Shown in pieces: positions 663 to 29,720 of a DNA stretch of 64,000 nucleotides (within the stretch, counting starts at the first letter, position 1; every line of letters starts with the position of its first letter). The position numbers were made by a program, and so were the translations under genes. The stretch is from Bacilli bacterium. GTDB taxonomy: Bacteria > Bacillota_I > Bacilli_A > ML615J-28 > CAG-698. The DNA lies in NCBI GenBank assembly GCA_017617065.1, contig JAFZWP010000013.1, forward strand, positions 89,808 to 153,807, given 5' to 3'. A model generated the notes under the pieces. That model searched no databases. It saw nothing but the letters and a program-made list of their open reading frames with translations, and had not been told where the DNA came from.

Positions 663-689
663 AATAAAACCTCATTTATTTATAAATAA

Positions 690-740
690 TAAAAAAAGAA
701 TAGCATTACCCGAAGGTAATACCGTAGGTAATACTATCCT
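690..740 (-). terminator. Rho-independent terminator after the giant lipoprotein gene
   Basis: Minus strand GTATTACC-TTCG-GGTAATGC followed by TATTCTTTTTTT. It contains a 12-bp tandem duplication. Confidence 0.8.
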
Positions 741-757
741 TTATTAATTAAATTTGA

Positions 758-3700
758 TTATTGCAATTCATTGCCAAGGAATGAAACTGTGCCTTGATAT
801 GATGCATCACCATTAGTGATTGTTAGATTGATTGTAGTTGTAGCATCTGCTGCAGGAGCTGAAGCTAATGTTACATAACATCTAACTGCACTTGCACTAT
901 AATTAGAGAATAATGTACCAACAACATTAATGCTTTCGCATGTAGCTGTTGCGCTGAATTGTGCCATATTTTCAGCTGTTAAGCCGATACTAGTTGGATC
1001 AATCCAAATCCATGCGCCAGCACCTTCAATGTGGTTACGTGCATCGCCTTCTGCTTGTAAGTTAGTTAATTGGAATGCAGCAGGGCTTGAAGCTTGTCCA
1101 TTAGGTAATGCATAAACTTCAAATGAATTAATTCTTACTTGTGCACTTAAATTAGAAACTTTGAATGAATCAACTGGTGCAGCAAATACAACAGTAACAA
1201 CCTTTGCATTGACAGTAACAGTTGCTCCCTCAGGGAAAGTAGAATTCTTTAATGCTGTAGCATAGTCATTAGAGTTTGCATTGAACACAACTTTGATTAA
1301 TCCATTGTAATGAACTTCAATAGATTGTTTTGCATAAACTCTTATAGGGTTAACATAAGGTTCACCGCTATTGCTATTACAAGTAGTTGATGAATTATCT
1401 TTATTAGCGATAAATGTTACATCACCTTGTACCCATTCTAGTTTATCAGCAGTTTTTGTTGACATAGTTCCTGTAGATGCGCTAGCAAATGAGAAATCAG
1501 CCACTTTTTCAGGTTCTACTGCACCTTCTTCTTTTGTTTCAACTACGATTTGAGTTGGTCCACCAATTGTAGCAGTGTATACGCCTTCAACAGCTTCTAC
1601 ATCCACACCATTAACTTTTACGCCTACTAATTCGTGGCCATTTGCTACATCAACTTTGAATGTGAATGTAGATCCATTTACGCCACTTTCAGCACTAATT
1701 TCTTTAACTGTTGCATGTTCACTAGAATCTTGAGAAACACTAACTGTACTTGTTCCAGCTTTGCAAGCATCAATTACAGAATATAGAGATTCACCATCAA
1801 CCTTAGTTGTTGCGATTTGAAGAGTTCCGCCATAGTTCATTAAGTAAGCATGAACTAAAACTTCATCATTTACATAAACATTTTCAATACCAGTACCTTT
1901 AGATGCAGTATAGATTGCTAATAATGGTTTACCATTTAATGTACTAGCAATTTTTGCATTTTGTACATATGTACCTTTGTCTTCGCCAGCATTTACTACA
2001 TAGCCCTTAATCCATACTTCTTGAACATCTACATATGCGCTAGATGAAGATCTACCCATTCTAGCAGCAAGATCTAGAGCTTCTTCAACAGTTAATGGAT
2101 TAGCTTGAGTACCTTTATCATAACTTAATACGCAGTTACCTACATATAAGTATGTGCTTCCGCTAATTGAACTTCTTGTAACGAATACAACTGATTTAAC
2201 TTCTGCTGCATCAAATGTTAATTCTTGATCAATTAAGCCTTGTGTAACTGGAATTGTTACCCAGTTGTTAGCATCACCAGCGATGAATACTTCACTTCCG
2301 TTAGCTAATACTAATTTAACTTTAACTGAGAAGTCTTGTGCACCACTGAAGTAGTTACCAACTTTGAATGATAATTTGTTTGCTAATCCTAAAACTTCGC
2401 CATCTTTGTTATAAGTAAATCTCATAGGTACACTATAACCATTTACCATATTAACAACTTTAACGCCATCTTTAGTTCTAGCATTCATTTGACCAGTAAT
2501 TACATTCCATTTATCGTTCTTGTAATTTTCACGAGTCCATTTAGTACTATTGTAAGCGCCATCGCTTCCTGGATGATCAGCAAATAAGTTAACATTTGCA
2601 GGAGCAGCAGGAATAGTATATCCTTCTTCTACAACAACGTCATAGATATTAACTGCTGCATCCATACCACCAATGAAATATGTACCAGGAGTAGTAATAA
2701 CATATTCAAGAATAGTAAGTTCTCCACTACCATATACTTGCTTACTAGTAATAACGTTCTTATCAGCATCAAAGATATGTAGTGTTCTAGTTTCAGAATT
2801 TGAACTATAAACATAAACTGTAACTTTTACAGATGAAGATTTTGTAGTGAATTTAATAGCACGAGCAGTTGGAGCAGATTTTCCACCTAATTTCATTCTT
2901 TTAGTGAAAGATAATGATCCAGCGTTTTTGCTATTTGCTTCTACAACAACAGTTTTATCTGCTGTAGCTAGTACTGTAAAGAAGTCTGCAAATTGTGTAT
3001 CTTCTTCAAGAGTAGCAGCTTGCATACCAGATACGTTTAGAGAATGCTTAGTATATGGATATGGAGCAACATGAACTTGTAATTCTGCTTTTCCTTCATT
3101 ACCAGCAGCATCTTTAACTTTAACTGTAACTTTATAATCACCAGCGATTAATTGGTTAAGTGTTAATCCACCTAAGTCAACCATTTCTTGAGTAACTGCA
3201 ATTGCACCATCGAAATCATCGTTAGCGCTTATGCCAGCTAATAATTGACCAAATAATGCAGATGCATCTTGACCTTCAGTTAAGTTAGCAGCAGCTAATG
3301 CAGTAGCAACTGAATCAGCAACAGTAACAACTGGAGCAGTCTTATCAATAGCAACTGTCATAGTGTTTGTAGCAGGATCATAAACAAGTTTATATTTTAA
3401 AGCTTGTCCTGGCATCCAACGATTGCCATCAGCTGATTCATGATATAAAGATTTATCCCATGCATCGCCAGTCTTTTCAGCTGCAGTAATAGCACCTGCA
3501 AATTTAGCATTTGTATACCATAATGCAACTTCTGAATCATCTTCACCTACAACAACGAATGAAATTCTATTCCATGCGCCAAGATCAACTAATGCTTCGT
3601 ATTTACCATCTACTAATGCGAATTCGCCTTGTTTAGCTCCAGCATATTTAACTGCTTTAATTGTAGCAGGAACTGCAGGAACTGCGAAGTCGATTGATAA

Positions 3701-6700
3701 TGTATTAGTAGCAGGATTATATGCTACGCTATAATGAGTTTCACCATCTGCACTTAGGATGAATTCTCCTCTTTCAGCTGCATCGTCTTCTGAATATAAT
3801 ACATTAGACCATGTAGCACCAGCTTTAGCTTCTAAAACTGCACTACCAATAACTTTAGCATTATCATAAGTTAAAACTTTTTTAGTTTCATCAGCAAATT
3901 CTAAAGTGAATGTAGCTCTTTGCCAAGAAGTAGCTAATGCAAATGTGCCTTCATAAATACCAGTTGCTTCATTTAATGTTAATGCACCTTCAGCATTTCC
4001 ACCCATCTTAACACCAGTTAAAACTGGAGCTTCAGGTTTAACATATACTAATTGACTGATATAGAATGGATGTCCAGAACCAGTTTCACTGATGTTAGGG
4101 AATACTACCATAGCAGGCTTGCTTGCATCATAAGTGAAGCTTGAAAAATCAATTGAACCGCTTATGGCTTTTCCATCCATTGAAATCCATTTTTCAGCAG
4201 ATCCATTATTATTAGGTTTAATACATAATACTTCGCCCTTTGTACCACGAACTACATACTTAACTTCCGTAGCACCAGTTAAATCAACAGGTAATGCAAT
4301 TTCGATGCAATCCCAAGGTTCAGCATTATCAGCAGCTTTTGTTAATACTAAATCTCTACAAGCTTGAACATATTGATTGCTTAAAGTAATTGGAGCAAGT
4401 AATAAGTCAATTGGATCTTTTCCTTCACCTTGTAATTCTAATTTAGTAACTGTAAATTCATTGCTTTCACCAGCCTTATTGAAGTCTGGGAAAATAATCA
4501 TAGTTTGCTTTTCAGCATTCCATGCAAAGTTTTCAGCAGCATTCCATTCTACTTGAACAGCAGCGCCTGTTCCGTTTGCAGGAACTTCAACTTGGTCATT
4601 AACTTTGATTACGAATGGAGCACCAGCAGGGCCAGTAACTTCTGCAACCATCTTAGTGTAACCAGTTAAATCAGCATTAGTCTTTAGACCAACCCAATCC
4701 CATTGACCGCCACCAGTCTTCATCATACGAATTTGATGAGCAACTTGGATAGTCTTAGGATTAATTGTTCCTTCTAATAAATCTACGCTATCTTCTACTG
4801 CTTCAGGGTAAACTGGAACATAATCAGGAATAGTAAGTGGGCTTCCTTTTGGAACAAGAATTTCAAATGCTGCTACTGCTGCATCGTATGCTTCTGTTCC
4901 TTCAACTAATAGGCTTCCATCTTTCTTAGAGATATTGAAACCACGTTTAATGTAGTTGCCCCACCATTCTTCAGTGATTTCTACTCTTTCATCTGAAGTG
5001 TTATTTTCTCTTGATGCTTGTTTGTTTTCATCAATCCATCCTTCAGGACGATATTGATAGCCATCAGCAATCTTAATTACTGAACCAACTGGTAATTCTT
5101 CTTTAGTGAATGTCTTTGTAGCAACAAACTTTTGAGAAGTTGTATCACCAGAGATTAATTGGTTGTAACGAGTTGAATCAGTTGTGTTGTAGTAACCATT
5201 ACCTAAAATGTACTTGCTTGCTTCAACTTTAACTAAGTCTTCATCACCACTTTGACCTTGTTCAGGTTTTGTAACTAAGTAAGATAATGCAAGAACATAT
5301 ACAGGATTACCAGAACCAGTTGCATTAGGGTTAACGAAGAAGATAACTGCTGATTTAGCATTGTTGTAAGCCATACCAGTTAAACTAATGATACCTTCTT
5401 GTAATGAACCAGTTAATGTAAGAGCCTTTTCATATCCACCATTATCATTTGGTTTAATGATAATAGAGTCGCCAGCTGTACCAATTACAGCGTATTTAAC
5501 TGCAGCATAACCGCTTAAATCATCGCTTACTTGGAACTTAGCGCAATCCCATGGTTCAGAATTAGAAGCTGGTTTTGTTAAAATAACCATCTTCTTAGCT
5601 GCGCAAGGATCACACTTAGTTAATGCACCAGCTAATAGATTAATAGGTTCTTTTCCTTCACCTTGTAATTCTAATTTAACAATTGCGAATTCGTTACCTT
5701 CACCAACCACATTGAAATCTGGGAACATAATCATAGTCTTCTTTGCAGCATCCCATGCAAAGTCTGCAGGAGCAGTCCATTCAACATGATTTATTCCACC
5801 ATTTCCATTTGCAGTGACTTCAATTGAATCATTAACTTTTAATACAAATGGCTTACCATCAGGACCGATTACATCAGCAACAACTTTATTGTAGCCTGTT
5901 AAATCATCTTCAACTGTTAAGCCAACCCAATCCCATTGACCGCCACCAGTCTTAGAAACTACTAAGCCATAAGATGCTTCGTGGTGTTGAGGATCGATTG
6001 TAGCATTAAGTAAGTTAACGTCACCGATTTCTTTTGTTGAGTAAATAGCAAATTCTTTGAAGTAAATATTGTTACCAGCAACATCGCCAGCATCGCCTGT
6101 AGGACCTACACAGAATTCAAGTGTTGGACCACTGTCAGCACCAGCAGTGCTATGTTTGTCATATGTGAATAATACAGTGTATTCAGCATATTCAGTACCA
6201 ATCTTTACAAGTTTGCTATAATCTTCAGCAATTGTAAATGCATCCATCCATGGATCAGCCCATAGACCAATACCAAGGTTGAATTGTAATTGTCTAGCTT
6301 GATCAGCTTTAGCAACGATCTTTAATACATAAGATTCGCCTTCAACTAATTCAAGACCACTATATTTAACTTTGTTAGCAGATGCCCATCCACCAACTGA
6401 TGCTAAAGCGATTGTGTATTCGCCATCAGCTTCAGTGATTGTACATGCTTCTGCATTAGCGATTGCATCTGGAGCTAAATCAATAACAACTTGGTCAGCA
6501 ACTAGTTTAGTGTTACCTTTTTCTCTTACAGAAATAGCAATTTCAACTTCTGCTTTATTGCCAGCAGCATCTGAAATTTCAATAACAACTTTGTATTCGC
6601 CAGCTTCGTTGAATTTAACTTGATCTAAGCCTTTAACATTAGCTTCAGTCAATGTCATAGCGCCATCTACATTATCAGTAACTGTTAAGTTAGCGATAAT

Positions 6701-9205
6701 ATCAGCAGCAGTTAATGGAGTACCAACATAAGTCTTAAGTGCTTTACCTTCAACTTTTGGAGCTTCTTTATCGTTAACTGTAATTGTAACAGTTAATGTA
6801 GCACTGTTACCACTTGAGTCTTTAACAGTATAAACGATATCATATGTTCCAACTACGTTAAGATTTGCGTTGTGTTGAATCATATCTGTAGTGATTGTGA
6901 TTACACCATCAACATCATCTGTAGCAGTGATGAACTTAGTGATATCTGGAGCAGCTGAGAATTGATCAAATACTTTAACAAGTCCATCAACTTCAGCTAA
7001 TACTGGAGCAGTTGTATCTGCTTCTTCTAAGACTTTAATTTGTAAAGTAATAGTAGCTTCTTTACCTTCACTATCAGCAACTTTATAAACAACATCATAT
7101 GTACCAGCTTTACTCATATCAACATTTTCAGTAATGTGAGCAGCAGTAATTTGAATGTCAGCTGCATCTTCTCTATCGTGAGCAGTTACATATTGAGTAA
7201 GATCAGGTTTGTCTTGACCTTTACCAAATGTAGTTGGAAGATCTTTATTAATAGTTAAAGTAGGAGCTGCATTTTCATTTGATAATAGATAGAATTGTAA
7301 ATTATCAAAGTAGAATGTATTACCAACTTCTTCGGCTGCATTCCAAGTGAATGCTCCACCATTCTTTAATTCGCATGAAATACCGCTATATCCATTAGCA
7401 CTCTTGTCTGAATGAACATAGAATACAACATACTTAGTTTCCCAATCTGTTGAAACGCTTAACATGTAGTTAGATGCACCTTCGAAGTTTTCTAACCATA
7501 CAGGAGCATCAGCAGCTAAACCAATACGTACAGACATATTTCTAGCAACAGCTGCTTTAACATCAAACTTCAACATATACCAGTTTTCAGCTTGTAATAC
7601 TGTAGAATCAGTATCGATAATTGGGCAAGATGCTGAGTCATATCCTGGGTTTTCATTTGATCTATTATGATGTACTAATACACCATCTCTAGTATACATT
7701 TCAGGATCACCAGCACCACCATGTAATCTAAATCCTTCCCAAATTGGATCAGTTGTGCCTTCTGCATAAGTTGAATCTGTTGAGAATGTAGGATCTGTAA
7801 TTAAATTTGTGCTATATGCTTTTGCAAATTCTACAGTTCTAGTAGCTTCGCCTCTATTGTTGCTTGAGTCAACAACATAGATTACAACTTGTTGTTCACC
7901 AGTTGCACCAGCAGCGATTCCACTTAAATCAACATCAAGACCAGCGTTTACTGGGCCATCAACATTATCGCTTGCAGTAACGCCAGCTAATACTAATGGT
8001 TTAAGTGCAGCAGCATTTGCTAATAATTCTACTGGAAGAACCATCTTTCCTTCAGGAACATTGATTACAGGAGCAATAACGTCTTTAGCTTCTGCGAATG
8101 CGAATTTAACATCGCTAAATGTTAAGCTTGCATCAGCTGGAGCAGCAAGTTTTACAGCACCTTCTAAGATTGCAGAATTAACTCTGAAGTAAACAGTAAC
8201 ATCATTGTCACCAGCAGCTAATGCGATCTTAGCTTGAGCAGTACCATTAGTAATGCTTGGAACAAGTTCACATGCAGCAGCAGCATTTACTTTGAATGTT
8301 AATTTAGCTAATGCGAATGCAGAAAGTTGAGTATTAATGCTTTCTAATGCAACAGCAAATTGATAATCAGCTTCAACTTTTGCAAATTCTTTAGCTGCTA
8401 AATCTTCGAATTGGAATTCGCCTAAGCCAACAGTAATAACTCTTGTAGCTTCAGCTTTATTTCCAGCAGCATCTGATACTTCATATTTAACTGAGTATTC
8501 GCCAAGTTTCCAAACATCTACTTCACCAGTAATCTTAATGTTTGCAGTAACATCGCCATCGATGGCATCATTAGCGCTTACATTATCAGTTAATTTGAAT
8601 TGTGTATCACCAATTATAATAGTTTTAGCACTTGTACCAGTTAATAATGGAGCATCTGTATCGTTTGAAACAACAGTAACTTTTCTTGTAACAGTTGTAA
8701 CGTTACCAGCGCTATCTCTAACAGTATAAGTTGCAATGTATTCGCCAACTAAATTGAAGTTAACGTTTCCATCATATTGAATTTGATCTGTTAGATCACC
8801 ATCTTCTTCATCACGGGCAGTTACGCCTTGAAGTGGTACAAATCTTTCGCCTTTTAAGATTTGAACATCATCTGCACCACTAATAACTGGAGCGTTATCA
8901 GCAATAACAGTGACTTCTATACTTGCTTCGCCAGTTTTCTTTCCTTTTGAAGCGGTTACAGTGATAGTAACTTTACCAGCACTAACACCGGTTACACTAC
9001 CGTCTTTTACAGTAGCGACAGCATCATTACTTGAAGCCCAAGTGAATGTAGCTCCACTCTTTGATGCTTCAGGAGTCAACTTGATTGTTTGACCAACTTT
9101 AACTTGAGTATCGCCTGATACTTTAACAGTAACTTTACCGCAGGCTACTAAGCTAAAGGTTACAAGTAACAATAAAATTGACATCAAAATTCTTTTTGTT
9201 CTCAT
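758..9205 (-). CDS. Giant (2815 aa) surface lipoprotein with Big_2, about 7 DUF5011/HYR-type Ig repeats and multiple CBM-like modules; no catalytic domain recognised
   Basis: Lipobox SLVAC; AGGAGG RBS; repeated DxxAPVI...TAxDxxDGD...GxYxxxYxVxDSxGN Ig units; two CBM4-like modules; CBM77-like module (FTKRMKLGG...RAIKFT); OB-fold-like module (GTQANPLTVEEA). Confidence 0.85.
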   Translation of the reverse strand: MRTKRILMSILLLLVTFSLVACGKVTVKVSGDTQVKVGQTIKLTPEASKSGATFTWASSNDAVATVKDGSVTGVSAGKVTITVTASKGKKTGEASIEVTVIADNAPVISGADDVQILKGERFVPLQGVTARDEEDGDLTDQIQYDGNVNFNLVGEYIATYTVRDSAGNVTTVTRKVTVVSNDTDAPLLTGTSAKTIIIGDTQFKLTDNVSANDAIDGDVTANIKITGEVDVWKLGEYSVKYEVSDAAGNKAEATRVITVGLGEFQFEDLAAKEFAKVEADYQFAVALESINTQLSAFALAKLTFKVNAAAACELVPSITNGTAQAKIALAAGDNDVTVYFRVNSAILEGAVKLAAPADASLTFSDVKFAFAEAKDVIAPVINVPEGKMVLPVELLANAAALKPLVLAGVTASDNVDGPVNAGLDVDLSGIAAGATGEQQVVIYVVDSSNNRGEATRTVEFAKAYSTNLITDPTFSTDSTYAEGTTDPIWEGFRLHGGAGDPEMYTRDGVLVHHNRSNENPGYDSASCPIIDTDSTVLQAENWYMLKFDVKAAVARNMSVRIGLAADAPVWLENFEGASNYMLSVSTDWETKYVVFYVHSDKSANGYSGISCELKNGGAFTWNAAEEVGNTFYFDNLQFYLLSNENAAPTLTINKDLPTTFGKGQDKPDLTQYVTAHDREDAADIQITAAHITENVDMSKAGTYDVVYKVADSEGKEATITLQIKVLEEADTTAPVLAEVDGLVKVFDQFSAAPDITKFITATDDVDGVITITTDMIQHNANLNVVGTYDIVYTVKDSSGNSATLTVTITVNDKEAPKVEGKALKTYVGTPLTAADIIANLTVTDNVDGAMTLTEANVKGLDQVKFNEAGEYKVVIEISDAAGNKAEVEIAISVREKGNTKLVADQVVIDLAPDAIANAEACTITEADGEYTIALASVGGWASANKVKYSGLELVEGESYVLKIVAKADQARQLQFNLGIGLWADPWMDAFTIAEDYSKLVKIGTEYAEYTVLFTYDKHSTAGADSGPTLEFCVGPTGDAGDVAGNNIYFKEFAIYSTKEIGDVNLLNATIDPQHHEASYGLVVSKTGGGQWDWVGLTVEDDLTGYNKVVADVIGPDGKPFVLKVNDSIEVTANGNGGINHVEWTAPADFAWDAAKKTMIMFPDFNVVGEGNEFAIVKLELQGEGKEPINLLAGALTKCDPCAAKKMVILTKPASNSEPWDCAKFQVSDDLSGYAAVKYAVIGTAGDSIIIKPNDNGGYEKALTLTGSLQEGIISLTGMAYNNAKSAVIFFVNPNATGSGNPVYVLALSYLVTKPEQGQSGDEDLVKVEASKYILGNGYYNTTDSTRYNQLISGDTTSQKFVATKTFTKEELPVGSVIKIADGYQYRPEGWIDENKQASRENNTSDERVEITEEWWGNYIKRGFNISKKDGSLLVEGTEAYDAAVAAFEILVPKGSPLTIPDYVPVYPEAVEDSVDLLEGTINPKTIQVAHQIRMMKTGGGQWDWVGLKTNADLTGYTKMVAEVTGPAGAPFVIKVNDQVEVPANGTGAAVQVEWNAAENFAWNAEKQTMIIFPDFNKAGESNEFTVTKLELQGEGKDPIDLLLAPITLSNQYVQACRDLVLTKAADNAEPWDCIEIALPVDLTGATEVKYVVRGTKGEVLCIKPNNNGSAEKWISMDGKAISGSIDFSSFTYDASKPAMVVFPNISETGSGHPFYISQLVYVKPEAPVLTGVKMGGNAEGALTLNEATGIYEGTFALATSWQRATFTLEFADETKKVLTYDNAKVIGSAVLEAKAGATWSNVLYSEDDAAERGEFILSADGETHYSVAYNPATNTLSIDFAVPAVPATIKAVKYAGAKQGEFALVDGKYEALVDLGAWNRISFVVVGEDDSEVALWYTNAKFAGAITAAEKTGDAWDKSLYHESADGNRWMPGQALKYKLVYDPATNTMTVAIDKTAPVVTVADSVATALAAANLTEGQDASALFGQLLAGISANDDFDGAIAVTQEMVDLGGLTLNQLIAGDYKVTVKVKDAAGNEGKAELQVHVAPYPYTKHSLNVSGMQAATLEEDTQFADFFTVLATADKTVVVEANSKNAGSLSFTKRMKLGGKSAPTARAIKFTTKSSSVKVTVYVYSSNSETRTLHIFDADKNVITSKQVYGSGELTILEYVITTPGTYFIGGMDAAVNIYDVVVEEGYTIPAAPANVNLFADHPGSDGAYNSTKWTRENYKNDKWNVITGQMNARTKDGVKVVNMVNGYSVPMRFTYNKDGEVLGLANKLSFKVGNYFSGAQDFSVKVKLVLANGSEVFIAGDANNWVTIPVTQGLIDQELTFDAAEVKSVVFVTRSSISGSTYLYVGNCVLSYDKGTQANPLTVEEALDLAARMGRSSSSAYVDVQEVWIKGYVVNAGEDKGTYVQNAKIASTLNGKPLLAIYTASKGTGIENVYVNDEVLVHAYLMNYGGTLQIATTKVDGESLYSVIDACKAGTSTVSVSQDSSEHATVKEISAESGVNGSTFTFKVDVANGHELVGVKVNGVDVEAVEGVYTATIGGPTQIVVETKEEGAVEPEKVADFSFASASTGTMSTKTADKLEWVQGDVTFIANKDNSSTTCNSNSGEPYVNPIRVYAKQSIEVHYNGLIKVVFNANSNDYATALKNSTFPEGATVTVNAKVVTVVFAAPVDSFKVSNLSAQVRINSFEVYALPNGQASSPAAFQLTNLQAEGDARNHIEGAGAWIWIDPTSIGLTAENMAQFSATATCESINVVGTLFSNYSASAVRCYVTLASAPAADATTTINLTITNGDASYQGTVSFLGNELQ
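4040..6020 (-). repeat. Intragenic duplication (offset 1233 nt) of a two-module beta-sandwich unit
   Basis: Identical 32-nt stretch ccaacccaatcccattgaccgccaccagtctt at 4689-4720 and 5922-5953. Protein repeats KTGGGQWDWVGL, KLELQGEGK.PI.LL and EPWDC. Confidence 0.9.
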
Positions 9206-9253
9206 AATTTTAAAACTTTTCCTCCTTAACTTTTATAATTTGATTGTTTAAAA

Positions 9254-10198
9254 TTATTCACCAGCAATACCTGAACGATCCGCGCTCTCTACAAACCATT
9301 TTTGAGTGAACGCATACAATAACAATAATGGCAAAATTGTCAACATTGTTCCCGCAAATAAAACACCTTGATTAAACGATTCCGCCGCAGCTCCAATACC
9401 AATCGATCCAGATGGGAATAGTTGAGCATACATATGTTCAAAACTAGATAATGCCATCTGTAAAGTGGTGATGTTTCCTTGGAAATACGTTACCGCTAAA
9501 ACCGTTTCATTCCAGTACCATACAAATGAATATAATATACATATTATAAATGCTGGTACTGACATAGGAATCGCAATTCTAATGAAGATTCCTACTTCAC
9601 TCGCTCCATCAATCTCCGCAGATTCACTTAATTCATGAGGTATCACTTTAAAAAACTGATAGAAAATTAAGATGAATACGCTTTGACGCAATCCAAATCC
9701 AGTTAGCGCTGGATAGATATACGCCTTTAGACTGCCTAACATTTTTAACTTTTGAAATATGACATATGTCGGGATACTCATTAACATTGTTGGAAGTAAG
9801 AAAATACCAACAAGTAGTGCCATCCAGATTTTTTTACCTGGAAACTCAAAATGAGCAAATCCATAACCAATCAGTGACGATGAGATCACCGCGCATAATG
9901 TTGGCAGAATACCAACTTTTAGAGAATCACCAAGTGATTTCCAAAAGTTTAAAACTTCGTTTGCTTTTTGATAATTATTAAAAACAAACTTTGTTGGAAT
10001 CCAAATTACCGTTGGATCCATTAAATCCTCTAAACCCATAAAGCTTTTTGAAACCATCTTTAGGATAGGATAAAGGAAAATAAAACTAATACCGATTAAT
10101 AACATGTAGATGAAGAATTTGCCAATTAAGCCAGACTCGCCTCGCTCACCTAGCATAATCTTCTTAAATGTCCTCTTCTTCTTAAATGTATTTTCCAT
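9254..10198 (-). CDS. Carbohydrate ABC transporter permease (MalG type)
   Basis: EAA loop IPHELSESAEIDGAS and multiple TM helices. Start moved from ORF-track 10228 to the ATG at 10198 behind AGGTGG. Confidence 0.9.
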   Translation of the reverse strand: MENTFKKKRTFKKIMLGERGESGLIGKFFIYMLLIGISFIFLYPILKMVSKSFMGLEDLMDPTVIWIPTKFVFNNYQKANEVLNFWKSLGDSLKVGILPTLCAVISSSLIGYGFAHFEFPGKKIWMALLVGIFLLPTMLMSIPTYVIFQKLKMLGSLKAYIYPALTGFGLRQSVFILIFYQFFKVIPHELSESAEIDGASEVGIFIRIAIPMSVPAFIICILYSFVWYWNETVLAVTYFQGNITTLQMALSSFEHMYAQLFPSGSIGIGAAAESFNQGVLFAGTMLTILPLLLLYAFTQKWFVESADRSGIAGE

Positions 10199-10205
10199 AA
10201 CCCAC

Positions 10206-11261
10206 CTACTTATACTTCCTATTAGCAAGTTTGAAGATTAATACATATACTAATATTACCACGATCTCAATACCGAATAATATCCAAGAAAGAGCTGAAG
10301 CATAATCACGTCCGTACTCAGGTGGAGCGATATTTGAACTAATTATACCTGTTAGCTCGTTACCTGTATTGGCATATATTACGGTAGTATAGATAATATT
10401 AATCGTAATTAGGGGCATTAATGTCGGGAAGGTAATTTTCCAGAACATTTCCCATTTATTTGCACCATCAATGCTAGCTGCTTCATAAACTGCTGTGTTA
10501 TCTTTTTGTAAACCTGCCAGAAATACTAAAGTTTGTACACCGCTAAACCATAAAATTAAAATGATTTTACCGAATACATCTATAATTATTTCTACAACTC
10601 TCTCAGGTAAATAGAAATCTAACATCCCGCGAAGCTCAGAGCTTTGCAAAGTTGATACCGTAAGTAAATCATAAGCGTTAAAGTAATTTAGTAAATTACC
10701 AGAAAGTAAGATAACTGGAATGAAGAATATCATTCTAAAGATCTTAATTCCTTTTAATTTACGATGAAGTAGTAACGCTAAAAGTAATGAGAAGATCAAA
10801 ACTAGTGGAACTACAACTGCAATATCGACAAGTGTAGATATAATTGCTTCCACATGTTCAGGATTATCTTGGAAGATTTGTTTAAACTGGCTAAAGCCAA
10901 ATCCTTCAATAAAGAACTTAACTACATTCGTTCCAGCAATAACTTTTGTACCCGCAAAATCCGCAAGTGCCATTCGTATTGATTGGATAACTGGTCTAAC
11001 AGCAAATAAAATAAATCCCACAATCCATAGCGATATAAACAAATATCCAGCTACAGCTTTTTTATGTTTGTTTGAAACATTCTTTCGGTATTTAGCAAGC
11101 AACCAGCTTATACCAGTATATTTACCAATAAATCTTAATCCTTTACCAATCCATACTGCTAATTTGCATCTAACGAATTCACTAATAACAATATAGATTT
11201 TCTTAAAGAATATGCTAATCTTATCCCAAATCTTTTTAAAGAACTCTTTAATCTTTTTCAT
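10206..11261 (-). CDS. Carbohydrate ABC transporter permease (MalF type)
   Basis: FLAGLQ...YEAASIDGANKWEMFWKITFP EAA motif; AGGAGG RBS. Confidence 0.9.
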   Translation of the reverse strand: MKKIKEFFKKIWDKISIFFKKIYIVISEFVRCKLAVWIGKGLRFIGKYTGISWLLAKYRKNVSNKHKKAVAGYLFISLWIVGFILFAVRPVIQSIRMALADFAGTKVIAGTNVVKFFIEGFGFSQFKQIFQDNPEHVEAIISTLVDIAVVVPLVLIFSLLLALLLHRKLKGIKIFRMIFFIPVILLSGNLLNYFNAYDLLTVSTLQSSELRGMLDFYLPERVVEIIIDVFGKIILILWFSGVQTLVFLAGLQKDNTAVYEAASIDGANKWEMFWKITFPTLMPLITINIIYTTVIYANTGNELTGIISSNIAPPEYGRDYASALSWILFGIEIVVILVYVLIFKLANRKYK

Positions 11262-11263
11262 TA

Positions 11264-13555
11264 TTAGTTACCTCCTTTCACTAAATAGCTATAAGGAGAC
11301 AAACTAACTCCGTCCACATTAACCACTTTATTATTGTAGTTAACATAGATTACTACACCATTACTATAACTACATTTACTAACACCGCTATCTACGTAAC
11401 TATGACTGGTCATTCTTGCTCCAATTACATTAGATAAAGCGTTATTAGTATCTTTGTACATTTTAACCATTAAATCTTTCCATAAATCATATTGTGTAGA
11501 ATTCAAATACTCATAATTTGTATATCTTAAATCATAAGCTTCTTCACTAGTTATTATGAATGATGGATAGATATTATACTCAATCATTCTTAAAACGGCT
11601 AAATCATAATCACTAATATAATTTATATTAGGCATGTACATATTTATTATACCACTAATTAAAATAGATACAAATGGAATAGAATCAGTTTCATAAACAA
11701 ATTTATTAGATTCATAAAATGCATCATAATAATTTGATAAATACTTGAGCAAATATGAATTTGGCTTTTCGGCGCCAATTTTATAACCTTCAATTTTACT
11801 TAGTTCTGTTGCTACTTGATCAATCATTTGTGTTCTATAAATAGCATCTGATTTATAACGATATGAATAAGCCGAATTTAAGTTATCAATCTTTAAGCCA
11901 GTAATATTAAGTTTATTAAACTTATTAGTCTTCTTCGTTATTAATCTAGATAAATCACTAGGTAAAACATAATATCCAATTTGTTCTTGTGAAGACTTTT
12001 GCGTTACTTCAAATGGTGAAAGACCAATTCGCTTAACATTTTTACTGCTAGTTCCATAACTACTTGATACATATGGATTAATTGTATAATCGATACTATA
12101 TCCTTTTTCATCGATGTAACTTGCTAACTTTTTAAGCTTTGATGCTCCACCAAGGCGAATAGCCGCTTTAGCATTCATTGCTCCTTGCGTGAAGTAACCA
12201 CCCCTATTCCAGCCAAGGTAAGTAATATCAAAATTATTAACTTCACTTTGTTCTAGATCTTTAATAATATCTAATGCTTCCATAAATGATGTCATTTTGA
12301 CATAATTCTTACCAAATAAGCCTGGTTTATAATCAAGACCTAAGATTTCTAATCTTAGTGGGATATTACTACTAGCTTCAATTACATTATCAAGACCTAA
12401 ATCTTCGCGATAAGCATTAGCCATACCAACATAGTTAGCATCATCCCCATTTAAGAATGTATAACTAATCGTATAATTTGATGGATAAGGATTTTCATTT
12501 AATAATGTCATTGTAGATGTAGACATCTTTACATTAAATGTATCCTTTACATAATACTTAAAGAAAGTCGTATTGACAGGAATTAAGCTATACATATATG
12601 GATATGAATGTAGTTCGCAACTTCCATAGCCATCTTCTACTTGACATAAGAAGCTTGCTTGATTGTAACCATGATTAACTCCATAAATTGGTAAGCTTAA
12701 AACACCATTCTCTTTTAAGTTATTACTAGCTGGATATTCGGTAAAACTATAATCATCACCATATAGTTTCTTAATATATGCTGTTGATGATTTGTGTTGA
12801 TTATATCTTACTAGCGCTCCAGACCCATCAGGGATAAAACTATATCCATTTATTTCATAGTTTTCTGATCCAAAATAAGGGAATAAGATAATACTTTTTA
12901 GTTTTGAATCTTTTGGATTAAGTGTACCAGCTATTTCTTCTTTAATTGAATCATAAGGAACACTAACAAATAGCTTATCATCATCAAGTCTAAATTCAAC
13001 TTTAAAGCTAATTAAGTAATTCAAACTAGAAAACTTAACATTAGCATCAAAACCATTATTAACTTTAGTTACTGTATTAGAAGCTACAGCTTTTTTGTTT
13101 TCTTTAGAAGTATAATAAACTTCTGCTGATTTAATAATACCTTTACTATCAACTGAATAATATTCAATAGTAATTCCTGATTCAATCTTACTTTGTACAG
13201 CTGCTGTATTAATGAATTCATGGGCCCTCTCATAAGTAGATAACCATGTATAGCCATTTGATTTATCATAGACAGCAATACCAAATGTAGATGACTTGAA
13301 ATATAAACTAATTTTAGAGTTTTCTGCCATCAACTGGTAACCATCTTCTAAAAGGTTTGCTCTTTTATCTACTATTTCAATCGGCGTAGTATCTTCTACT
13401 TGTGTGAAGAAATTACTTGATGGATCAAGTTCGTGAAGCAACTGGACTTCACCACTTGTATCCTTTGCCCTAACATTAATTACATTAACTGTAAACAATA
13501 TGCCAATCATTAACACAATCAAGCAAGTGATAATTTTCTGAATTTTTCTATCCAC
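11264..13555 (-). CDS. DUF5696-like secreted/membrane-anchored protein of the ABC module
   Basis: Signal peptide; ILFPYFGS...GYSFIPDGSGAL, LPIYG, YLGWNRGG and YxNGxxIYVNY motifs typical of this family. Confidence 0.7.
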   Translation of the reverse strand: MDRKIQKIITCLIVLMIGILFTVNVINVRAKDTSGEVQLLHELDPSSNFFTQVEDTTPIEIVDKRANLLEDGYQLMAENSKISLYFKSSTFGIAVYDKSNGYTWLSTYERAHEFINTAAVQSKIESGITIEYYSVDSKGIIKSAEVYYTSKENKKAVASNTVTKVNNGFDANVKFSSLNYLISFKVEFRLDDDKLFVSVPYDSIKEEIAGTLNPKDSKLKSIILFPYFGSENYEINGYSFIPDGSGALVRYNQHKSSTAYIKKLYGDDYSFTEYPASNNLKENGVLSLPIYGVNHGYNQASFLCQVEDGYGSCELHSYPYMYSLIPVNTTFFKYYVKDTFNVKMSTSTMTLLNENPYPSNYTISYTFLNGDDANYVGMANAYREDLGLDNVIEASSNIPLRLEILGLDYKPGLFGKNYVKMTSFMEALDIIKDLEQSEVNNFDITYLGWNRGGYFTQGAMNAKAAIRLGGASKLKKLASYIDEKGYSIDYTINPYVSSSYGTSSKNVKRIGLSPFEVTQKSSQEQIGYYVLPSDLSRLITKKTNKFNKLNITGLKIDNLNSAYSYRYKSDAIYRTQMIDQVATELSKIEGYKIGAEKPNSYLLKYLSNYYDAFYESNKFVYETDSIPFVSILISGIINMYMPNINYISDYDLAVLRMIEYNIYPSFIITSEEAYDLRYTNYEYLNSTQYDLWKDLMVKMYKDTNNALSNVIGARMTSHSYVDSGVSKCSYSNGVVIYVNYNNKVVNVDGVSLSPYSYLVKGGN

Positions 13556-15647
13556 GGAAAATCACCTCCTTGACAAGATCCACATTAAATCCAAACAATT
13601 GTGCAAATACTAAATACAACAAGATTATTACAATTACTAATACTAGCATCATAAATGCAGTTAATAATAAATTAACGATTGTTTGTTTAGCCGAGAAATT
13701 ATGCGTTTCTTTTATAACAACAAATAATAATATTCCTGTCCAAATAAACATTACTACTAATGGGAAGTAATATAAGAATCCTTCATTTAGAGTTAATGCA
13801 TTAGATATTAGTATTATCCAAGGCATAACAATTACAATTGGCATTAATGAACCCATTGTATTGATTGTAATTGTTCTAAATGTTCCTTCACCACTCATTA
13901 GTGAAGATATTAAGTAATTGCTTACAATAAACAAAGCAATTGGTAAAATAATCTTCGTTAATTCTTTTAATAAAATTGTTCTTTCTAGTACTACATCAGT
14001 AAATAAGAATCCTGTTGCTACCAAAGATAATAAATAAATTCCTAATAATAATACTAATACTATTAAAGCATTATAGATTTTAATTCGTTTATCATATCTT
14101 ACATAATATACGGCATCAAATGGATGACGGATATATTTAAACATAATTAAAATACTTTTAACCTTTGGTCTACTTGCCACCTTCTTAATTGGATTAGTTA
14201 TTTTATCTAAATAATGATGTTTCTTATTAGTCTTAATAACTACTATAATTGCTATTATTACTAAAACAGCAATAATGGCTACTATACTAATGTTTTTCAT
14301 TAGCCATAAGTTTCTAGCTTCCCAGAATGCTTCCGAATATTGTTCTTTCGCATTGGCTAATTTAAACTTTTCCATAGCTCCATCATAATCACGTTCTAGA
14401 TAATATGCCATTCCGATACCTTTATGAGCTAGGTCAAACATTGAATTATATCTCAAAACTTCTTCCCAAAGATCTTTTGATTCTTCATATTTACCGCTCA
14501 TATAAAGTTCTAAGGCTTCATGAACTTTTGTGGAGAACTCGGTCTTTCTAAATACTTGAATGGACGATGCTTGATCATCAACTACATATAAATCATCTTT
14601 GCTATCTACCGCAATTGATGAAGCAGATTTAAATAAACCAAGTTGTTCATCACCACTAATAGTTCCTGAGAACATGAATAGAAGGTTTCCTTCAATATCA
14701 TATTCAAAGATTGTTCCACCTTTACTAACAGCATAAACTGTTTTATGGTTAGAACTCCATGAATCCACAAAACTATTTGATACTATCATATCGTTAGTAT
14801 AGAAGTTTAGACCACCGATATTAACTTTTTTAATAGTATCACCTAAATCATTTTGAACTACTCCTTGTGTTACAGTGTAGATATATCCAGAATCATCTAA
14901 CATTACGTTTTCTGGAGCTGGAGCAATCTTCTTTGTTAACACAACTTTTTCATTTTCCCCATAAAGGTAATTTTTTAGTAAATCAAGGAAGTTACCACTT
15001 GAAGAGTTTGGTGCAAAGAAGTTTAGGAATCTATTTTCACTATTAACTAAAAGTACACCATTGCTTGATCCATGCGATACGATATACATCGTATAGTTAG
15101 AATCAACTGCTATCTTCATTGGACGGTACAAGAAGTCATCAACTTCCATTAATGATCCACTTGGTCTACTAAATGTTTTATCAAGTGTTGCTGTCTTTAA
15201 GTTTTTATCAAATTTATAAACAGCTACTTTACCTGTATCGGTTTTTTGATTATCACCAAAATCAGTAACATAAACATATTCATTTCTAACGAATAAACCA
15301 TTAGGTTTAATCAATATGTCACTACCAAATTCAGTAATATAAGTCCAATCTTTATCTAAAATTACAACACGTTTATTTCCAGTATCGCATACATAGAAAT
15401 AATCTTCTTTATCAATGAATAAATCTTGAGGTGAATTAAAGGCATCATCTTCACCTAGACCATTTACAAATGATTTAATGTTTTGGATTGGGTCATATGC
15501 TCCTTGTGTTTCCACAATCTCTCCATATCTATTTACAGTACGCGTTACATATGGAGCACTTGCCTTAACATTTAAGCAAGATATTATAACCACAATCGCT
15601 AGTATAGCGATAAAGTATTTTGTAATTAATCTAACTCTTTTATTCAT
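13548..15647 (-). CDS. NHL beta-propeller + TPR + YIP1 membrane domain protein
   Basis: NHL repeats (FNSPQDLFID...YVCDTGNKRV), TPR-like segment (AHKGIGMAYY), C-terminal HPFD plus 5-TM YIP1 region. Confidence 0.8.
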   Translation of the reverse strand: MNKRVRLITKYFIAILAIVVIISCLNVKASAPYVTRTVNRYGEIVETQGAYDPIQNIKSFVNGLGEDDAFNSPQDLFIDKEDYFYVCDTGNKRVVILDKDWTYITEFGSDILIKPNGLFVRNEYVYVTDFGDNQKTDTGKVAVYKFDKNLKTATLDKTFSRPSGSLMEVDDFLYRPMKIAVDSNYTMYIVSHGSSNGVLLVNSENRFLNFFAPNSSSGNFLDLLKNYLYGENEKVVLTKKIAPAPENVMLDDSGYIYTVTQGVVQNDLGDTIKKVNIGGLNFYTNDMIVSNSFVDSWSSNHKTVYAVSKGGTIFEYDIEGNLLFMFSGTISGDEQLGLFKSASSIAVDSKDDLYVVDDQASSIQVFRKTEFSTKVHEALELYMSGKYEESKDLWEEVLRYNSMFDLAHKGIGMAYYLERDYDGAMEKFKLANAKEQYSEAFWEARNLWLMKNISIVAIIAVLVIIAIIVVIKTNKKHHYLDKITNPIKKVASRPKVKSILIMFKYIRHPFDAVYYVRYDKRIKIYNALIVLVLLLGIYLLSLVATGFLFTDVVLERTILLKELTKIILPIALFIVSNYLISSLMSGEGTFRTITINTMGSLMPIVIVMPWIILISNALTLNEGFLYYFPLVVMFIWTGILLFVVIKETHNFSAKQTIVNLLLTAFMMLVLVIVIILLYLVFAQLFGFNVDLVKEVIFRG

Positions 15648-16600
15648 TATTTAATACCTGAATGAGCCATCGTATTCATAACTTGTTTTTGAAGAATAAT
15701 GAACAAAATCAAGTTAGGCATGAATATGATTAAGCTTGCAGCTGCTTGGATACCTTGGGCAGCAATTGAGTTAGTTGATAAGGTTAGCGTTCCAAAGTAG
15801 TATGGTAGTGTTTTTAGTGCTTCATCTACAATATAAAGTGATGAAGTTTCTGTATTATTCCATACAGTTTGGAATGCTAGTATTGCTACAGTAGCTAGGG
15901 CTGGCTTTACCATTGGTAGAGTTACGTGCCAATATACTTGCCACTTTGATGCTCCATCAATGATTGCCGCTTCATTTAATTCTTTAGGAATTTGTTCCAT
16001 AAATTGTTTTAGTAAGAATACACCTACTGGCATTGCAATTAATGGAATAATGTGAGCTAAATAAGTATTAGCAATTCCTAAATATGTAATCATCATAAAT
16101 CTTGGTACTGCTACCGCAATTGCGATAAACATAATAGCAAGTTGGTTAGCAGCATATAAGAACTTTTTACCTTTGAAATTTAAGTATGTGAAAGCAAATG
16201 CTGCTAAACTACTTAAAAGTAAAGATATAACGATAACTAAAATACTTACTAAAATACTATTAAACAAATATCTACCAAATGGAATATCAGTTTGGCTAGT
16301 CGCATGAACTAAAGCTCTAAAGTTATCGAAGCTTATCCTACTTGCAAAGAATTTAGGAGGGTAAGCATATAACTCTTCAATTGGTTTAAATGCATGCGAA
16401 ACAATAAATAATATAGGTAAGATTGTTAGTACTAAAACTGGAAGTAAAATCAAATAGAATTTGATTTGACTTGGATGGAAGCCTTTAGGGTCAATCATTG
16501 CCCCAAAGTAAGAAGGCCTCTTTCTTCTTCTTTCTTTTGCCTCCATTTTTTTCTTCACTTTGTGAAGTTTCTTGTTTTCAGATTCAACGGTTCTTTTCAT
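15647..16600 (-). CDS. Carbohydrate ABC transporter permease (MalG type)
   Basis: KQFMEQIPKELNEAAIIDGAS EAA motif. The ORF track extends to 16648; the likely start is near 16600. Confidence 0.9.
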   Translation of the reverse strand: MKRTVESENKKLHKVKKKMEAKERRRKRPSYFGAMIDPKGFHPSQIKFYLILLPVLVLTILPILFIVSHAFKPIEELYAYPPKFFASRISFDNFRALVHATSQTDIPFGRYLFNSILVSILVIVISLLLSSLAAFAFTYLNFKGKKFLYAANQLAIMFIAIAVAVPRFMMITYLGIANTYLAHIIPLIAMPVGVFLLKQFMEQIPKELNEAAIIDGASKWQVYWHVTLPMVKPALATVAILAFQTVWNNTETSSLYIVDEALKTLPYYFGTLTLSTNSIAAQGIQAAASLIIFMPNLILFIILQKQVMNTMAHSGIK

Positions 16601-16601
16601 C

Positions 16602-17525
16602 TTAATCATCCGACCTAAATAAATGGTTAGCAACGAAATAGAATACAAGAACTAACATCAGTAATACTACTGATAAGCTTGAGGCATATCCCATTTCCAT
16701 ACGACTAAATGCATAATCTTGCATATGGTCACTAATTAGCCAGCCGGCTAATTGTGGTGTTGGGCTTGCACCCGTTAAAGCGGTAGCAAGACCAGCTGAG
16801 TTAAATGTAGATACGATTGCCATTACAGCACCGAACATCATTTGTGGTCTCATTGAAGGAATTGTAATATAGATTATTTCTTGGAATCTATTCTTCATTC
16901 CGTCCACATATGCAGCTTCATAAATTTCACGGTTGGTATTTAAAATACCAGAAAGCATGGCTAAGAATCCAATACCCATACTACTCCATAACCCTACAAA
17001 TACCATAATGATAAAGATAGTTGTTTTATCTTGAAGGAATTGGAGTGGTTCGTTAACGATTCCCCAGCTTAATAATAAATAGTTAATATAGCCTCTACTA
17101 TCACCACTAAACATAGCTTTCCATACAACTGATATTAATACACTACCAGTTAGAGATGGGCTATATAAGATAATAGCAGCGACATTTCTAAACCTTCTTG
17201 GAAGTTGAGCTAATACCCAAGCTAAGAAAAAGGCTAGCATATATCCTACTGGACCAACAATTAAAGCATATTTAATTGTGTTAGGTAATGCTGACTGCAT
17301 AAAGTCTAAGTCTTGTGTAAACAAAGTTACATAGTTTGTTAGACCGATGAAGTGCGGCATATTAACACCATCATAATATGCAAACGATAATAAGAAGGAA
17401 ATTAATATTAGTAATACTACAAATACTAAGAAGATTATCGCATAAGGGCCAATAAACAAATAAGCCGTATTAAAGCGTCTATTTCTAGCTTTATTATCTT
17501 TAGATATAACTTGTGACTTATTCAT
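16602..17525 (-). CDS. Carbohydrate ABC transporter permease (MalF type)
   Basis: YEAAYVDGMKNRFQEIIYITIPSMRPQ EAA motif; 6 TM helices. Confidence 0.9.
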   Translation of the reverse strand: MNKSQVISKDNKARNRRFNTAYLFIGPYAIIFLVFVVLLILISFLLSFAYYDGVNMPHFIGLTNYVTLFTQDLDFMQSALPNTIKYALIVGPVGYMLAFFLAWVLAQLPRRFRNVAAIILYSPSLTGSVLISVVWKAMFSGDSRGYINYLLLSWGIVNEPLQFLQDKTTIFIIMVFVGLWSSMGIGFLAMLSGILNTNREIYEAAYVDGMKNRFQEIIYITIPSMRPQMMFGAVMAIVSTFNSAGLATALTGASPTPQLAGWLISDHMQDYAFSRMEMGYASSLSVVLLMLVLVFYFVANHLFRSDD

Positions 17526-20511: not shown

Positions 20512-20536
20512 ACTGAATACCTCTTTTCTTTTTTTA

Positions 20537-23121: not shown

Positions 23122-23131
23122 TACTTCACCT

Positions 23132-25192: not shown

Positions 25193-25194
25193 TT

Positions 25195-27229: not shown

Positions 27230-27237
27230 AACTACCA

Positions 27238-29706: not shown

Positions 29707-29720
29707 AACTAAATCCTTTT

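Follow-up and report, generated by a model that had tools for sequence, protein, structure and literature searches.

A giant modular lipoprotein at the end of a β-mannan operon in gut Bacilli: a probable surface glycan-binding protein

Introduction

Wall-less Bacilli related to the Acholeplasmatales are common, uncultured inhabitants of ruminant and other animal guts, and how cells with one membrane and small genomes feed on plant polymers is poorly understood. The question arises with a stretch of DNA from one such bacterium (assembly GCA_017617065.1, contig JAFZWP010000013.1, positions 89,808 to 153,807; these 64,000 nucleotides (nt) are called the window, and coordinates below refer to it). 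Here, a minus-strand gene at 758..9205 encodes a lipoprotein of 2815 amino acids (aa), the giant protein, behind the genes of a mannan utilization operon. What would such a cell do with so large a protein at the end of such an operon? The answer developed below, from the architecture of the protein, the homologies and folds of its modules, its position in the operon, the synteny of related loci, and the co-occurrence of its conserved core with glycoside hydrolase (GH) family GH130, is that it is probably a lipid-anchored, non-catalytic surface glycan-binding protein that captures β-mannan and feeds import by ATP-binding cassette (ABC) transporters.

Architecture of the giant protein

The borders of the modules, drawn from BLAST of the protein against itself together with Pfam, give the order Big_2, Ig1, Ig2, X1, Ig3, Ca, Ig4–Ig6, Cb, A1, B1, INS, A2, B2, T1, T2, Ig7, K, L, M, N, O, and P, in which Ig denotes immunoglobulin-like spacers. 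In window coordinates, and with CBM standing for carbohydrate-binding module and AF2 for AlphaFold2, the features are as follows.

9140..9205, minus strand: signal peptide and lipobox LVAC, aa 1–22, Cys22 being the predicted lipid anchor (translation, conservation)
8900..9139, minus strand: Big_2 Ig-like domain, aa 23–102 (Pfam PF02368 at 32–90, E 5e-9)
8426..8899, minus strand: Ig1–Ig2, PF16403 spacers, aa 103–260 (Pfam; Ig domains of chitinase 60 in the PDB, 4hmc, E 1.3e-19)
8084..8425, minus strand: X1, conserved all-β module, aa 261–374 (kept in 16 homologues; all-strand in AF2)
7814..8083, minus strand: Ig3, PF16403, aa 375–464 (Pfam, self-BLAST)
7262..7813, minus strand: Ca, CBM4/CBM22-type β-jelly roll, aa 465–648
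6512..7261, minus strand: Ig4–Ig6, PF16403 spacers, aa 649–898 (Pfam, self-BLAST)
6023..6511, minus strand: Cb, CBM4-related, end of the conserved core, aa 899–1061 (profile against the PDB)
4028..6022, minus strand: W-module block A1, B1, INS, A2, B2, aa 1062–1726 (self-BLAST)
3341..4027, minus strand: T1–T2 tandem, aa 1727–1955 (self-BLAST, E 1.5e-9)
3059..3340, minus strand: Ig7, PF16403/Big_13-type spacer, aa 1956–2049 (Pfam, self-BLAST)
2618..3058, minus strand: K, homologue of carbohydrate-binding domains of putative pectate lyases, CBM77-like fold, aa 2050–2196
2090..2617, minus strand: L, CBM-type β-jelly roll, aa 2197–2372
1115..2089, minus strand: M-N-O unit (OB-fold-like, Ig-like, and a third module), aa 2373–2697
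761..1114, minus strand: P, C-terminal all-β module, aa 2698–2815 (predicted local confidence, pLDDT, about 85)

The spacers belong to PF16403 (Bact_surface_Ig-like; “DUF5011” in NCBI names), which passes in six stretches of the whole protein (Pfam, E 6.7e-53), and internal BLAST (836–893 against 1988–2046, E 3.9e-9) places a seventh copy at about 1956–2049. A first-pass annotation, made from the letters of the window alone, had described Big_2 and about seven such spacers, as found here, and the positions that it gave for CBM4-like, four tryptophan-containing, tandem, and CBM77-like modules coincide with the self-BLAST borders. Its estimate of roughly 12 β-sandwich modules gives way to a count of 16 non-Ig modules (X1, Ca, Cb, A1, B1, INS, A2, B2, T1, T2, K, L, M, N, O, and P).

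Models made with AF2 for residues 261–648 (pLDDT 82.6) and 1616–2815 (pLDDT 68.9) are almost entirely β strand. Among the modules, A1, A2, Cb, and INS are without a model, and M and O were modeled poorly (pLDDT <50). Fold neighbors were resolved for Ca, K, and L, which made up the matches listed; X1, B2, T1, T2, N, and P were not reached.

A conserved core with two CBM4-like modules

Mapping of the modules onto 32 matches of the protein search divides the giant protein into two parts of very different constancy. From Big_2/Ig1 through Cb, about 1060 aa, the arrangement is collinear in 16 homologues. The part after Cb, some 1750 aa, differs among them in extra Cb copies, in Ig7-L repeats, and in the number of T modules, while W, K, M-N-O, and P are variably present or absent; the P module is C-terminal in the homologues P0002–P0006, P0008, and P0017, and the orthologue from genome G069 ends in four L modules. 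As only the N-terminal core is conserved across genera and the orthologues in other genera are shorter (about 1150–1700 aa), the size of 2815 aa results from growth, within the genus, of an older protein of about 1100–1500 aa, and the C-terminal portion is a shuffled extension specific to the lineage.

Within the core, Ca is the most conserved of the non-Ig modules. Across 19 homologues of 33–79% identity it retains many invariant aromatic and charged residues, R555, R560, E572, E612, E626, and D634 among them. Binding modules, not jelly-roll enzymes, make up most of its 50 listed fold neighbors and occupy the top places, and the fold is that of a CBM4-type β-jelly roll. For Cb, a profile of 19 core sequences matched PDB entries 1gui_A (E 2.2e-5), 3k4z_A (E 1.5e-4), and 3p6b_A (E 0.024). 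Likewise, PF02018 (cut-off 25.9 bits) scores 25.2–27.7 bits on the Cb-equivalent module of the orthologues P0005–P0008, 25.9 bits on the orthologous Ca of P0013, and 34.6 bits at residues 1029–1096 of the orthologue from genome G006, probably on a second Cb-like copy. Ca is, in addition, a relative of Cb (E 5.3e-6). Because of these profile matches, orthologue scores, and mutual relatedness, the labeling of both modules as CBM4-like, proposed earlier for about 7290–7810 and 6040–6480, is supported, their own sequences having diverged too far for Pfam.

The variable C-terminal extension

The extension is built of modules whose kinship is more difficult to trace. K is homologous to the solved carbohydrate-binding domains of the putative pectate lyases 8WC1 and 8X8H, and it superposes on CBM77 of Ruminococcus flavefaciens (5FU5), having a fold of the CBM77 type. 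In phmmer against PDB sequences (E<=10), K returned 8wc1, 8x8h, and one chance match, with 5fu5 absent, and Pfam at the same threshold gave chance-level matches only. Thus, the proposed CBM77-like module stands as a matter of fold, and a relation to CBM77 at the level of sequence does not.

The four tryptophan-containing W modules are related to each other, as had been noted earlier, with A1 and A2 sharing 65% identity in self-BLAST, and 24 copies could be aligned. Their assignment to any family fails: A and B match no Pfam family at E<=10 and no family among PDB sequences, and profiles of the 24 W copies and of 12 T copies returned nothing significant from the PDB, the best match, LuxF (E 0.005), being judged a chance one. 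For the W pair, the ESM Atlas offers galactose-binding-like and SGBP_B_XBD leads at low recognition scores. INS, which interrupts the block, is 50% identical to residues 368–497 of P0050, a region of tandem accessory modules that follows a DUF4886 (SGNH-like) domain; it does not match the DUF4886 domain itself.

The T modules are all-β (AF2 pLDDT about 65–87), and the tandem had been read as SusE/F-like. T1 and T2 match nothing in Pfam at E<=10 and no PDB sequence (profile of 12 copies), which leaves that assignment with a language-model lead to DUF5111/DUF5114 (0.90–0.91 in the ESM Atlas, at low recognition), and it is not retained.

Toward the C-terminus, the search with residues 2197–2815 gave 977 matches at E<=1e-3, many of which cover residues 168–505 of that query and often run up to the C-terminus of the matched protein. 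M coincides with PF01336 OB-fold matches in three distant carriers (P0087, P0090, and P0161). The M-N-O unit recurs as a block, often at the extreme C-terminus, in many large proteins without catalytic domains, and this recurrence suggests a common C-terminal function. In all, no family could be assigned to at least seven types of module (X1, W, T, INS, O, P, and the M-N-O unit); if these modules bind glycans, they would be candidates for new CBM families.

Search for catalytic and cellulosomal domains

How far can an enzyme hidden among so many modules be discounted? Pfam on the whole protein (E<=1; 17 families found) shows no GH, polysaccharide lyase (PL), carbohydrate esterase (CE), cohesin, or dockerin family. 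The same search on the 16 separate non-Ig segments at E<=10 found no catalytic, cohesin, or dockerin family (best E 0.013), and NCBIfam likewise gave none of these, only two sub-threshold repeat matches, in agreement with the initial view that no such motif is recognizable. Moreover, 44 distant carriers of L or M-N-O, drawn from the best 150 of the 977 matches, were scanned, and in none did Pfam find a catalytic domain at E<=1e-6. These results are good but incomplete evidence that the giant protein lacks an enzyme domain.

It is nevertheless conceivable, if very improbable, that a new glycanase, lyase, or esterase activity resides in one of the unassigned modules (Ca, W, INS, M, or O). Jelly rolls are known from GH and PL families as well, the invariant acidic and basic residues of Ca (E572, E612, E626, D634, R555, and R560) could be imagined in a catalytic role, and the fold search left several modules without neighbors. 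Set against this are the absence of catalytic families from Pfam and NCBIfam, the predominance of binding modules among the 50 listed fold neighbors of Ca, and the resemblance of INS to the accessory modules of DUF4886 proteins and not to their DUF4886 domain.

Position at the end of a mannan operon

From 31373 to 758, every gene is on the minus strand, and neighbors are separated by short gaps or overlap. In the order of transcription they encode a CE2 lipoprotein, GH2, LacI, GH130, a GH5 lipoprotein, a second GH130, a 518-aa lipoprotein, a 1014-aa solute-binding protein (SBP), permeases A and B, an NHL/TPR/Yip1 protein, a DUF5696 protein, permeases C and D, and the giant protein. The blocks of genes and the signals around the last of them are as follows.

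22108..31373, minus strand: CE2 lipoprotein, GH2 of β-mannosidase type, LacI, GH130, GH5 lipoprotein, GH130 (Pfam, lipoboxes)
9254..22093, minus strand: two SBPs (518 aa and 1014 aa), permeases A/B, NHL/TPR/Yip1, DUF5696, permeases C/D (Pfam)
9221..9227, minus strand: ribosome-binding site AAGGAGG, 15 nt 5' of the ATG, within the 48-nt gap (sequence)
702..723, minus strand: terminator-like hairpin with T-run, 3' of the stop codon of the giant gene

The giant gene begins 48 nt behind the gene of ABC permease D, and the 10 terminator-like sites found in 1–20000 all lie outside that gap. This, together with the unbroken chain of same-strand genes, bears out the suggestion that no terminator separates it from the permease and that it ends the mannan operon. 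The AGGAGG ribosome-binding site predicted for it is present as AAGGAGG, at a spacing to the ATG, 15 nt, that is long. Beyond the hairpin, the next gene encodes phosphomannose isomerase (PMI).

The reading frame is uninterrupted under genetic code table 11. In one other study, the contigs of four runs account for 28–30 of 30 bins of the giant gene, and one of them spans 7389–9600, across its start; since these contigs cover and bridge the gene, the open reading frame (ORF) is not an artifact of a single assembly. The W-repeat region (about 4400–5980) is a different matter. Contigs of that study have joints there that skip 1466–1505 nt (4449/4474 to 5916/5980) or, between A2 and A1, which are homologous, step back 1182–1526 nt. 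The number of W copies is less certain on account of these alternative joints, which reflect either strain variation or repeat-induced assembly ambiguity.

Two features of the transport genes upstream deserve comment. The 518-aa lipoprotein (20537–22093) matches no Pfam family; its orthologue in genome G040 matches SBP_bac_1 (E 2.1e-15), which identifies it as a second, divergent SBP, so that the operon has two SBPs for its two permease pairs. The idea that the giant protein substitutes as SBP for the second pair was rejected for this reason. The 1014-aa SBP (17518–20562) matches SBP_bac_1 only at residues 602–883, behind an N-terminal stretch of about 590 aa that is unassigned, and has an N-terminal hydrophobic anchor without a lipobox; the layout is the same in G006 and G040. 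In addition, consecutive ORFs of the cassette, as called automatically, overlap by 8–47 nt at 10206–10228, 13548–13555, 16602–16648, 17518–17525, and 20537–20562. Such overlaps would fit translational coupling along the operon, and some of the listed starts may be too far upstream.

Synteny and distribution of the core

If the giant protein serves mannan utilization, its conserved core would be expected at such loci in other genomes. The gene for the core was followed at six loci from four genera and one metagenome-assembled genome (MAG): those of G000, the genome of the giant gene, and G001 (same genus), of G006, G040, and G069, and of an Acholeplasmataceae MAG of unplaced genus (L002). In all six it lies directly 3' of permease D, and NHL/Yip1, DUF5696, permeases C/D, and the core lipoprotein follow in the same order. 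Permeases A/B and an SBP precede NHL/Yip1 wherever the fetched stretch extends that far. In the three genera checked, represented by G001, G006, and G040, the CE2/GH2/GH130/GH5 neighborhood is syntenic as well, and the PMI gene follows the core lipoprotein in G000 and G040. Had homologues been unlinked to polysaccharide loci, the initial proposal of a glycan-capture function would have suffered; they are linked to mannan loci.

Of 106 genomes from the order, five carry the X1-Ca core and nine carry GH130. GH130 is present in all five carriers of the core, and the core was found in none of the 97 genomes that lack GH130. This phyletic pattern ties the core to one version, that for mannan, of a transport cassette that is far more general. 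More distant homologues of the core include one from an Acholeplasmataceae MAG, and one is found in the cultured mollicute Peloplasma aerotolerans (36% identity, 96% coverage), so that the capture hypothesis could be tested at the bench.

Lipoprotein export and the host cell envelope

For capture of polymers to be of use to the cell, the protein must reach its surface. The N-terminus is MRTKRILMSILLLLVTFSLVAC followed by G, with the lipobox (...FSLVAC before that G) fitting the pattern [LVI][ASTVI][GAS]C, and the lipobox first recognized in the translation is confirmed by conservation, L19 and C22 being invariant in 19 of 19 aligned homologues. The signal peptide is the sole hydrophobic segment of the protein, whose mature form has a computed mass of about 298 kDa and an acidic pI of 4.55. 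Above their cut-offs, both the acyltransferase Lgt (PF01790, E 2.6e-31) and signal peptidase II, LspA (PF01252, E 1.1e-33), are encoded in the host genome, and the mature protein is accordingly predicted to be acylated and exposed at the surface.

The host belongs to an uncultured gut and rumen lineage of Bacilli related to the Acholeplasmatales. Near-identical DNA (at least 0.69 of sampled words) occurs in animal gut metagenome runs of two studies, and a contig of a sister species comes from a yak-rumen “Bacilli bacterium” MAG. The genome (1.73 Mb, roughly 31% GC) is read with table 11. A scan for the transpeptidase family PF00905 and the FtsW/RodA family PF01098 found neither in this genome, which is 98.75% complete, and detected both in 10 of 14 control genomes. 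The earlier guess of a probably wall-less lineage fits this lack of penicillin-binding protein and SEDS families; a lineage that has no cell wall and has not reassigned TGA is plausible, not proven.

An acidic lipoprotein of 298 kDa on a wall-less cell invites another explanation, namely that it forms a structural coat or spacer layer without specific ligand and owes its place in the operon to chance or to co-expression. The many modules without known ligand, and the several similar large modular lipoproteins encoded in the same genome, would be at home in such a layer. It would not account for the strong conservation of aromatic and charged residues in Ca over 19 homologues at 33–79% identity, for the homology of K to experimentally solved carbohydrate-binding domains, or for the confinement of the core to five of 106 genomes, all with GH130, and a coat is therefore an improbable function.

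The DUF5696 cassette and related lipoproteins

The cassette of SBP, permeases A and B, Yip1(/NHL), DUF5696, and permeases C and D is not peculiar to mannan. DUF5696 occurs in 58 of 61 related genomes, and the host genome holds four copies of the cassette, those outside the mannan operon lying at G000:C18:56543-68993, C20:32922-45732, and C4:29045-41843. One of these three has as neighbors a glycoamylase-family gene, GH3, and a 1200-aa Flg_new/W-module lipoprotein; another, GH16, an 892-aa Ig/CBM_4_9/W lipoprotein, and GH30; and another, a NagB-like gene and an 812-aa DUF4886 lipoprotein. The carbohydrate genes around the cassette thus differ from copy to copy, the neighbors of all three include a large modular lipoprotein, which supports a general pairing of the two, and the GH genes beside two of them suggest β-glucans as target.

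The DUF5696 protein has no match among PDB sequences at E<=1, a literature search found no paper that mentions DUF5696, and among the papers listed in further searches, none has a title or abstract that describes a lipoprotein or cassette of this kind from mollicute-like bacteria. The DUF5696/NHL-Yip1 double-ABC cassette is thus a more novel thread than the giant lipoprotein. A tentative extension, for which the odds are clearly on the low side, is that the giant lipoprotein is the substrate-capture arm of an undescribed mollicute-type machine, in which each cassette works with its own large lipoprotein. If true, this would be a third architecture of polysaccharide utilization locus, beside the SusC/D systems and the ordinary Gram-positive ABC loci, in which recombination among the C-terminal modules would adjust the materials to which the cell adheres.

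A further large lipoprotein, of 1974 aa (G000:C11:40301-46222; L017:2302-8223), combines OB-like M modules, N, O, four T, Ig7, and L. Its gene directly follows genes for a 424-aa staphylococcal-nuclease lipoprotein and an ABC ATPase/permease set, a locus that may be a mollicute-type nucleic-acid capture system. By their presence there, T, L, M, N, and O are seen not to be specific to glycan loci.

Weighing the proposed function

The mechanism favored here for the giant protein as a surface glycan-binding protein would run as follows. An ancestral N-terminal core of about 1060 aa holds two CBM4-type jelly rolls on Ig stalks, and its gene is the fixed last one of the β-mannan utilization operon. 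Exposed at the surface, the protein would bind mannan-containing plant wall fragments and keep them against the membrane; the lipoprotein GH5 endo-mannanase and CE2 would act on the bound fragments there; and the two SBP-dependent ABC importers would take up the oligosaccharides before they diffuse away. With the extension of about 1750 aa (K, L, W, T, and M-N-O among its modules), attachment to heterogeneous plant material may become wider in range or firmer.

Several observations weigh against this proposal. CBM4 relatives are usually described for β-glucans and xylans, not mannan, so that specificity for mannan is argued from genomic context only. The giant protein's own Ca and Cb give no Pfam match at E<=10. 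W, T, X1, INS, M, O, and P are without a fold family, which makes cryptic activity possible. At least T, L, M-like modules, N, and O are general surface-protein parts or bind ligands other than plant glycans, and not every module of the giant protein need bind glycan. GH130 occurs without a detected core in four of its nine genomes, three of which are 61–80% complete. Finally, the co-occurrence of core and GH130 is a pattern and not a statistical test, as the genomes are kin and only four genera are represented.

Another explanation is that the protein is a general adhesin or colonization factor whose CBM-like modules serve as lectins and attach the cell to plant particles, other microbes, or host surfaces, with no hand-over of nutrients to the enzymes and importers of the operon. 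Its giant Ig-repeat architecture is related to that of LapB/InlK-type surface proteins, the shuffling of its C-terminal part at the level of strains and species and the alternative joints of the W repeats are of a kind common in adhesins, and T, L, M, N, and O are shared with the nuclease-locus lipoprotein. A colonization factor would hardly be expected, by contrast, to have its core strictly at the end of a mannan-type cassette in six of six loci, only in GH130-bearing genomes, and in a gene before which no terminator-like site is found. Adhesion of this kind is rather unlikely; it is also compatible with capture of β-mannan for import, not exclusive of it.

On balance, the surface glycan-binding scaffold envisaged in the first-pass annotation survives in outline, since neither a catalytic domain nor an unlinked set of homologues was found. 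What does not survive is the specificity of the C-terminal T, L, M, N, and O modules for glycan loci.

Comparison with known systems

The closest functional parallels are SusE, SusF, and the surface glycan-binding proteins (SGBPs) of Bacteroidota, which are likewise lipid-anchored and non-catalytic, have tandem Ig-like and CBM-like modules, and are encoded within their loci. B. thetaiotaomicron SGBP-B (7kwb) is among the multi-domain Foldseek matches listed, at E 1.9e-8 with a poor TM score. The giant protein is roughly 5–10 times larger than SusE or SusF, and the systems differ in other respects: no SusC or SusD is found by Pfam among the 19 neighboring ORFs, import instead proceeding by ABC transport across a single membrane, and the T modules are not within the SusE, SusF_SusE, DUF5111, or DUF5114 models (Pfam, E<=10). 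The analogy drawn earlier with SusE/F therefore holds for a lipid-anchored, non-catalytic protein of tandem β-sandwiches and fails for SusC/D neighbors and for membership by sequence; the giant protein would function like an SGBP without being a member of the family.

Individual modules have counterparts that are parts of enzymes. The CBM4 modules of Thermotoga maritima Lam16A (CBM4-2, 1GUI) and of C. thermocellum CbhA/CelK (3K4Z, 3P6B) are attached to enzymes, whereas those of the giant protein are not. Similarly, compared with the pectate lyase domains 8WC1 and 8X8H, for which a literature search found no describing paper, and with CBM77 (5FU5), K is detached from any lyase.

Among Firmicute systems, the nearest comparison is with the β-mannan loci of Roseburia intestinalis, which combine an endo-mannanase at the surface, an ABC importer dependent on an SBP, CE2, and GH130, with CBMs that recruit mannan outside the cell (PMC6385246). 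There, CBM27 and CBM23 are part of a GH26 enzyme thought to be attached to the wall via Ig-like and Pro-Gly regions (PMC6385246). The operon described here has the same types of enzyme and importer, with the mannanase a GH5 lipoprotein, the binding modules on a separate giant lipoprotein, and a transporter cassette that adds DUF5696, NHL/Yip1, and a second permease pair. Binding appears here to have been separated from the enzyme and given to a protein of its own.

Cellulosomal scaffoldins, the Sas proteins of amylosomes, and tapirins are familiar Firmicute examples of large proteins that have no catalytic role and hold substrate to the cell. The giant protein differs from these scaffolds in having no cohesin or dockerin (Pfam, E<=1) and a lipid anchor in place of sortase or SLH attachment. 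Taken together with its neighbors, the locus suggests that the Sus-like logic of binding, cutting at the surface, and importing has been assembled from different parts, with lipoproteins where Sus systems have outer-membrane proteins, and with a conserved ABC/DUF5696/NHL-Yip1 cassette.

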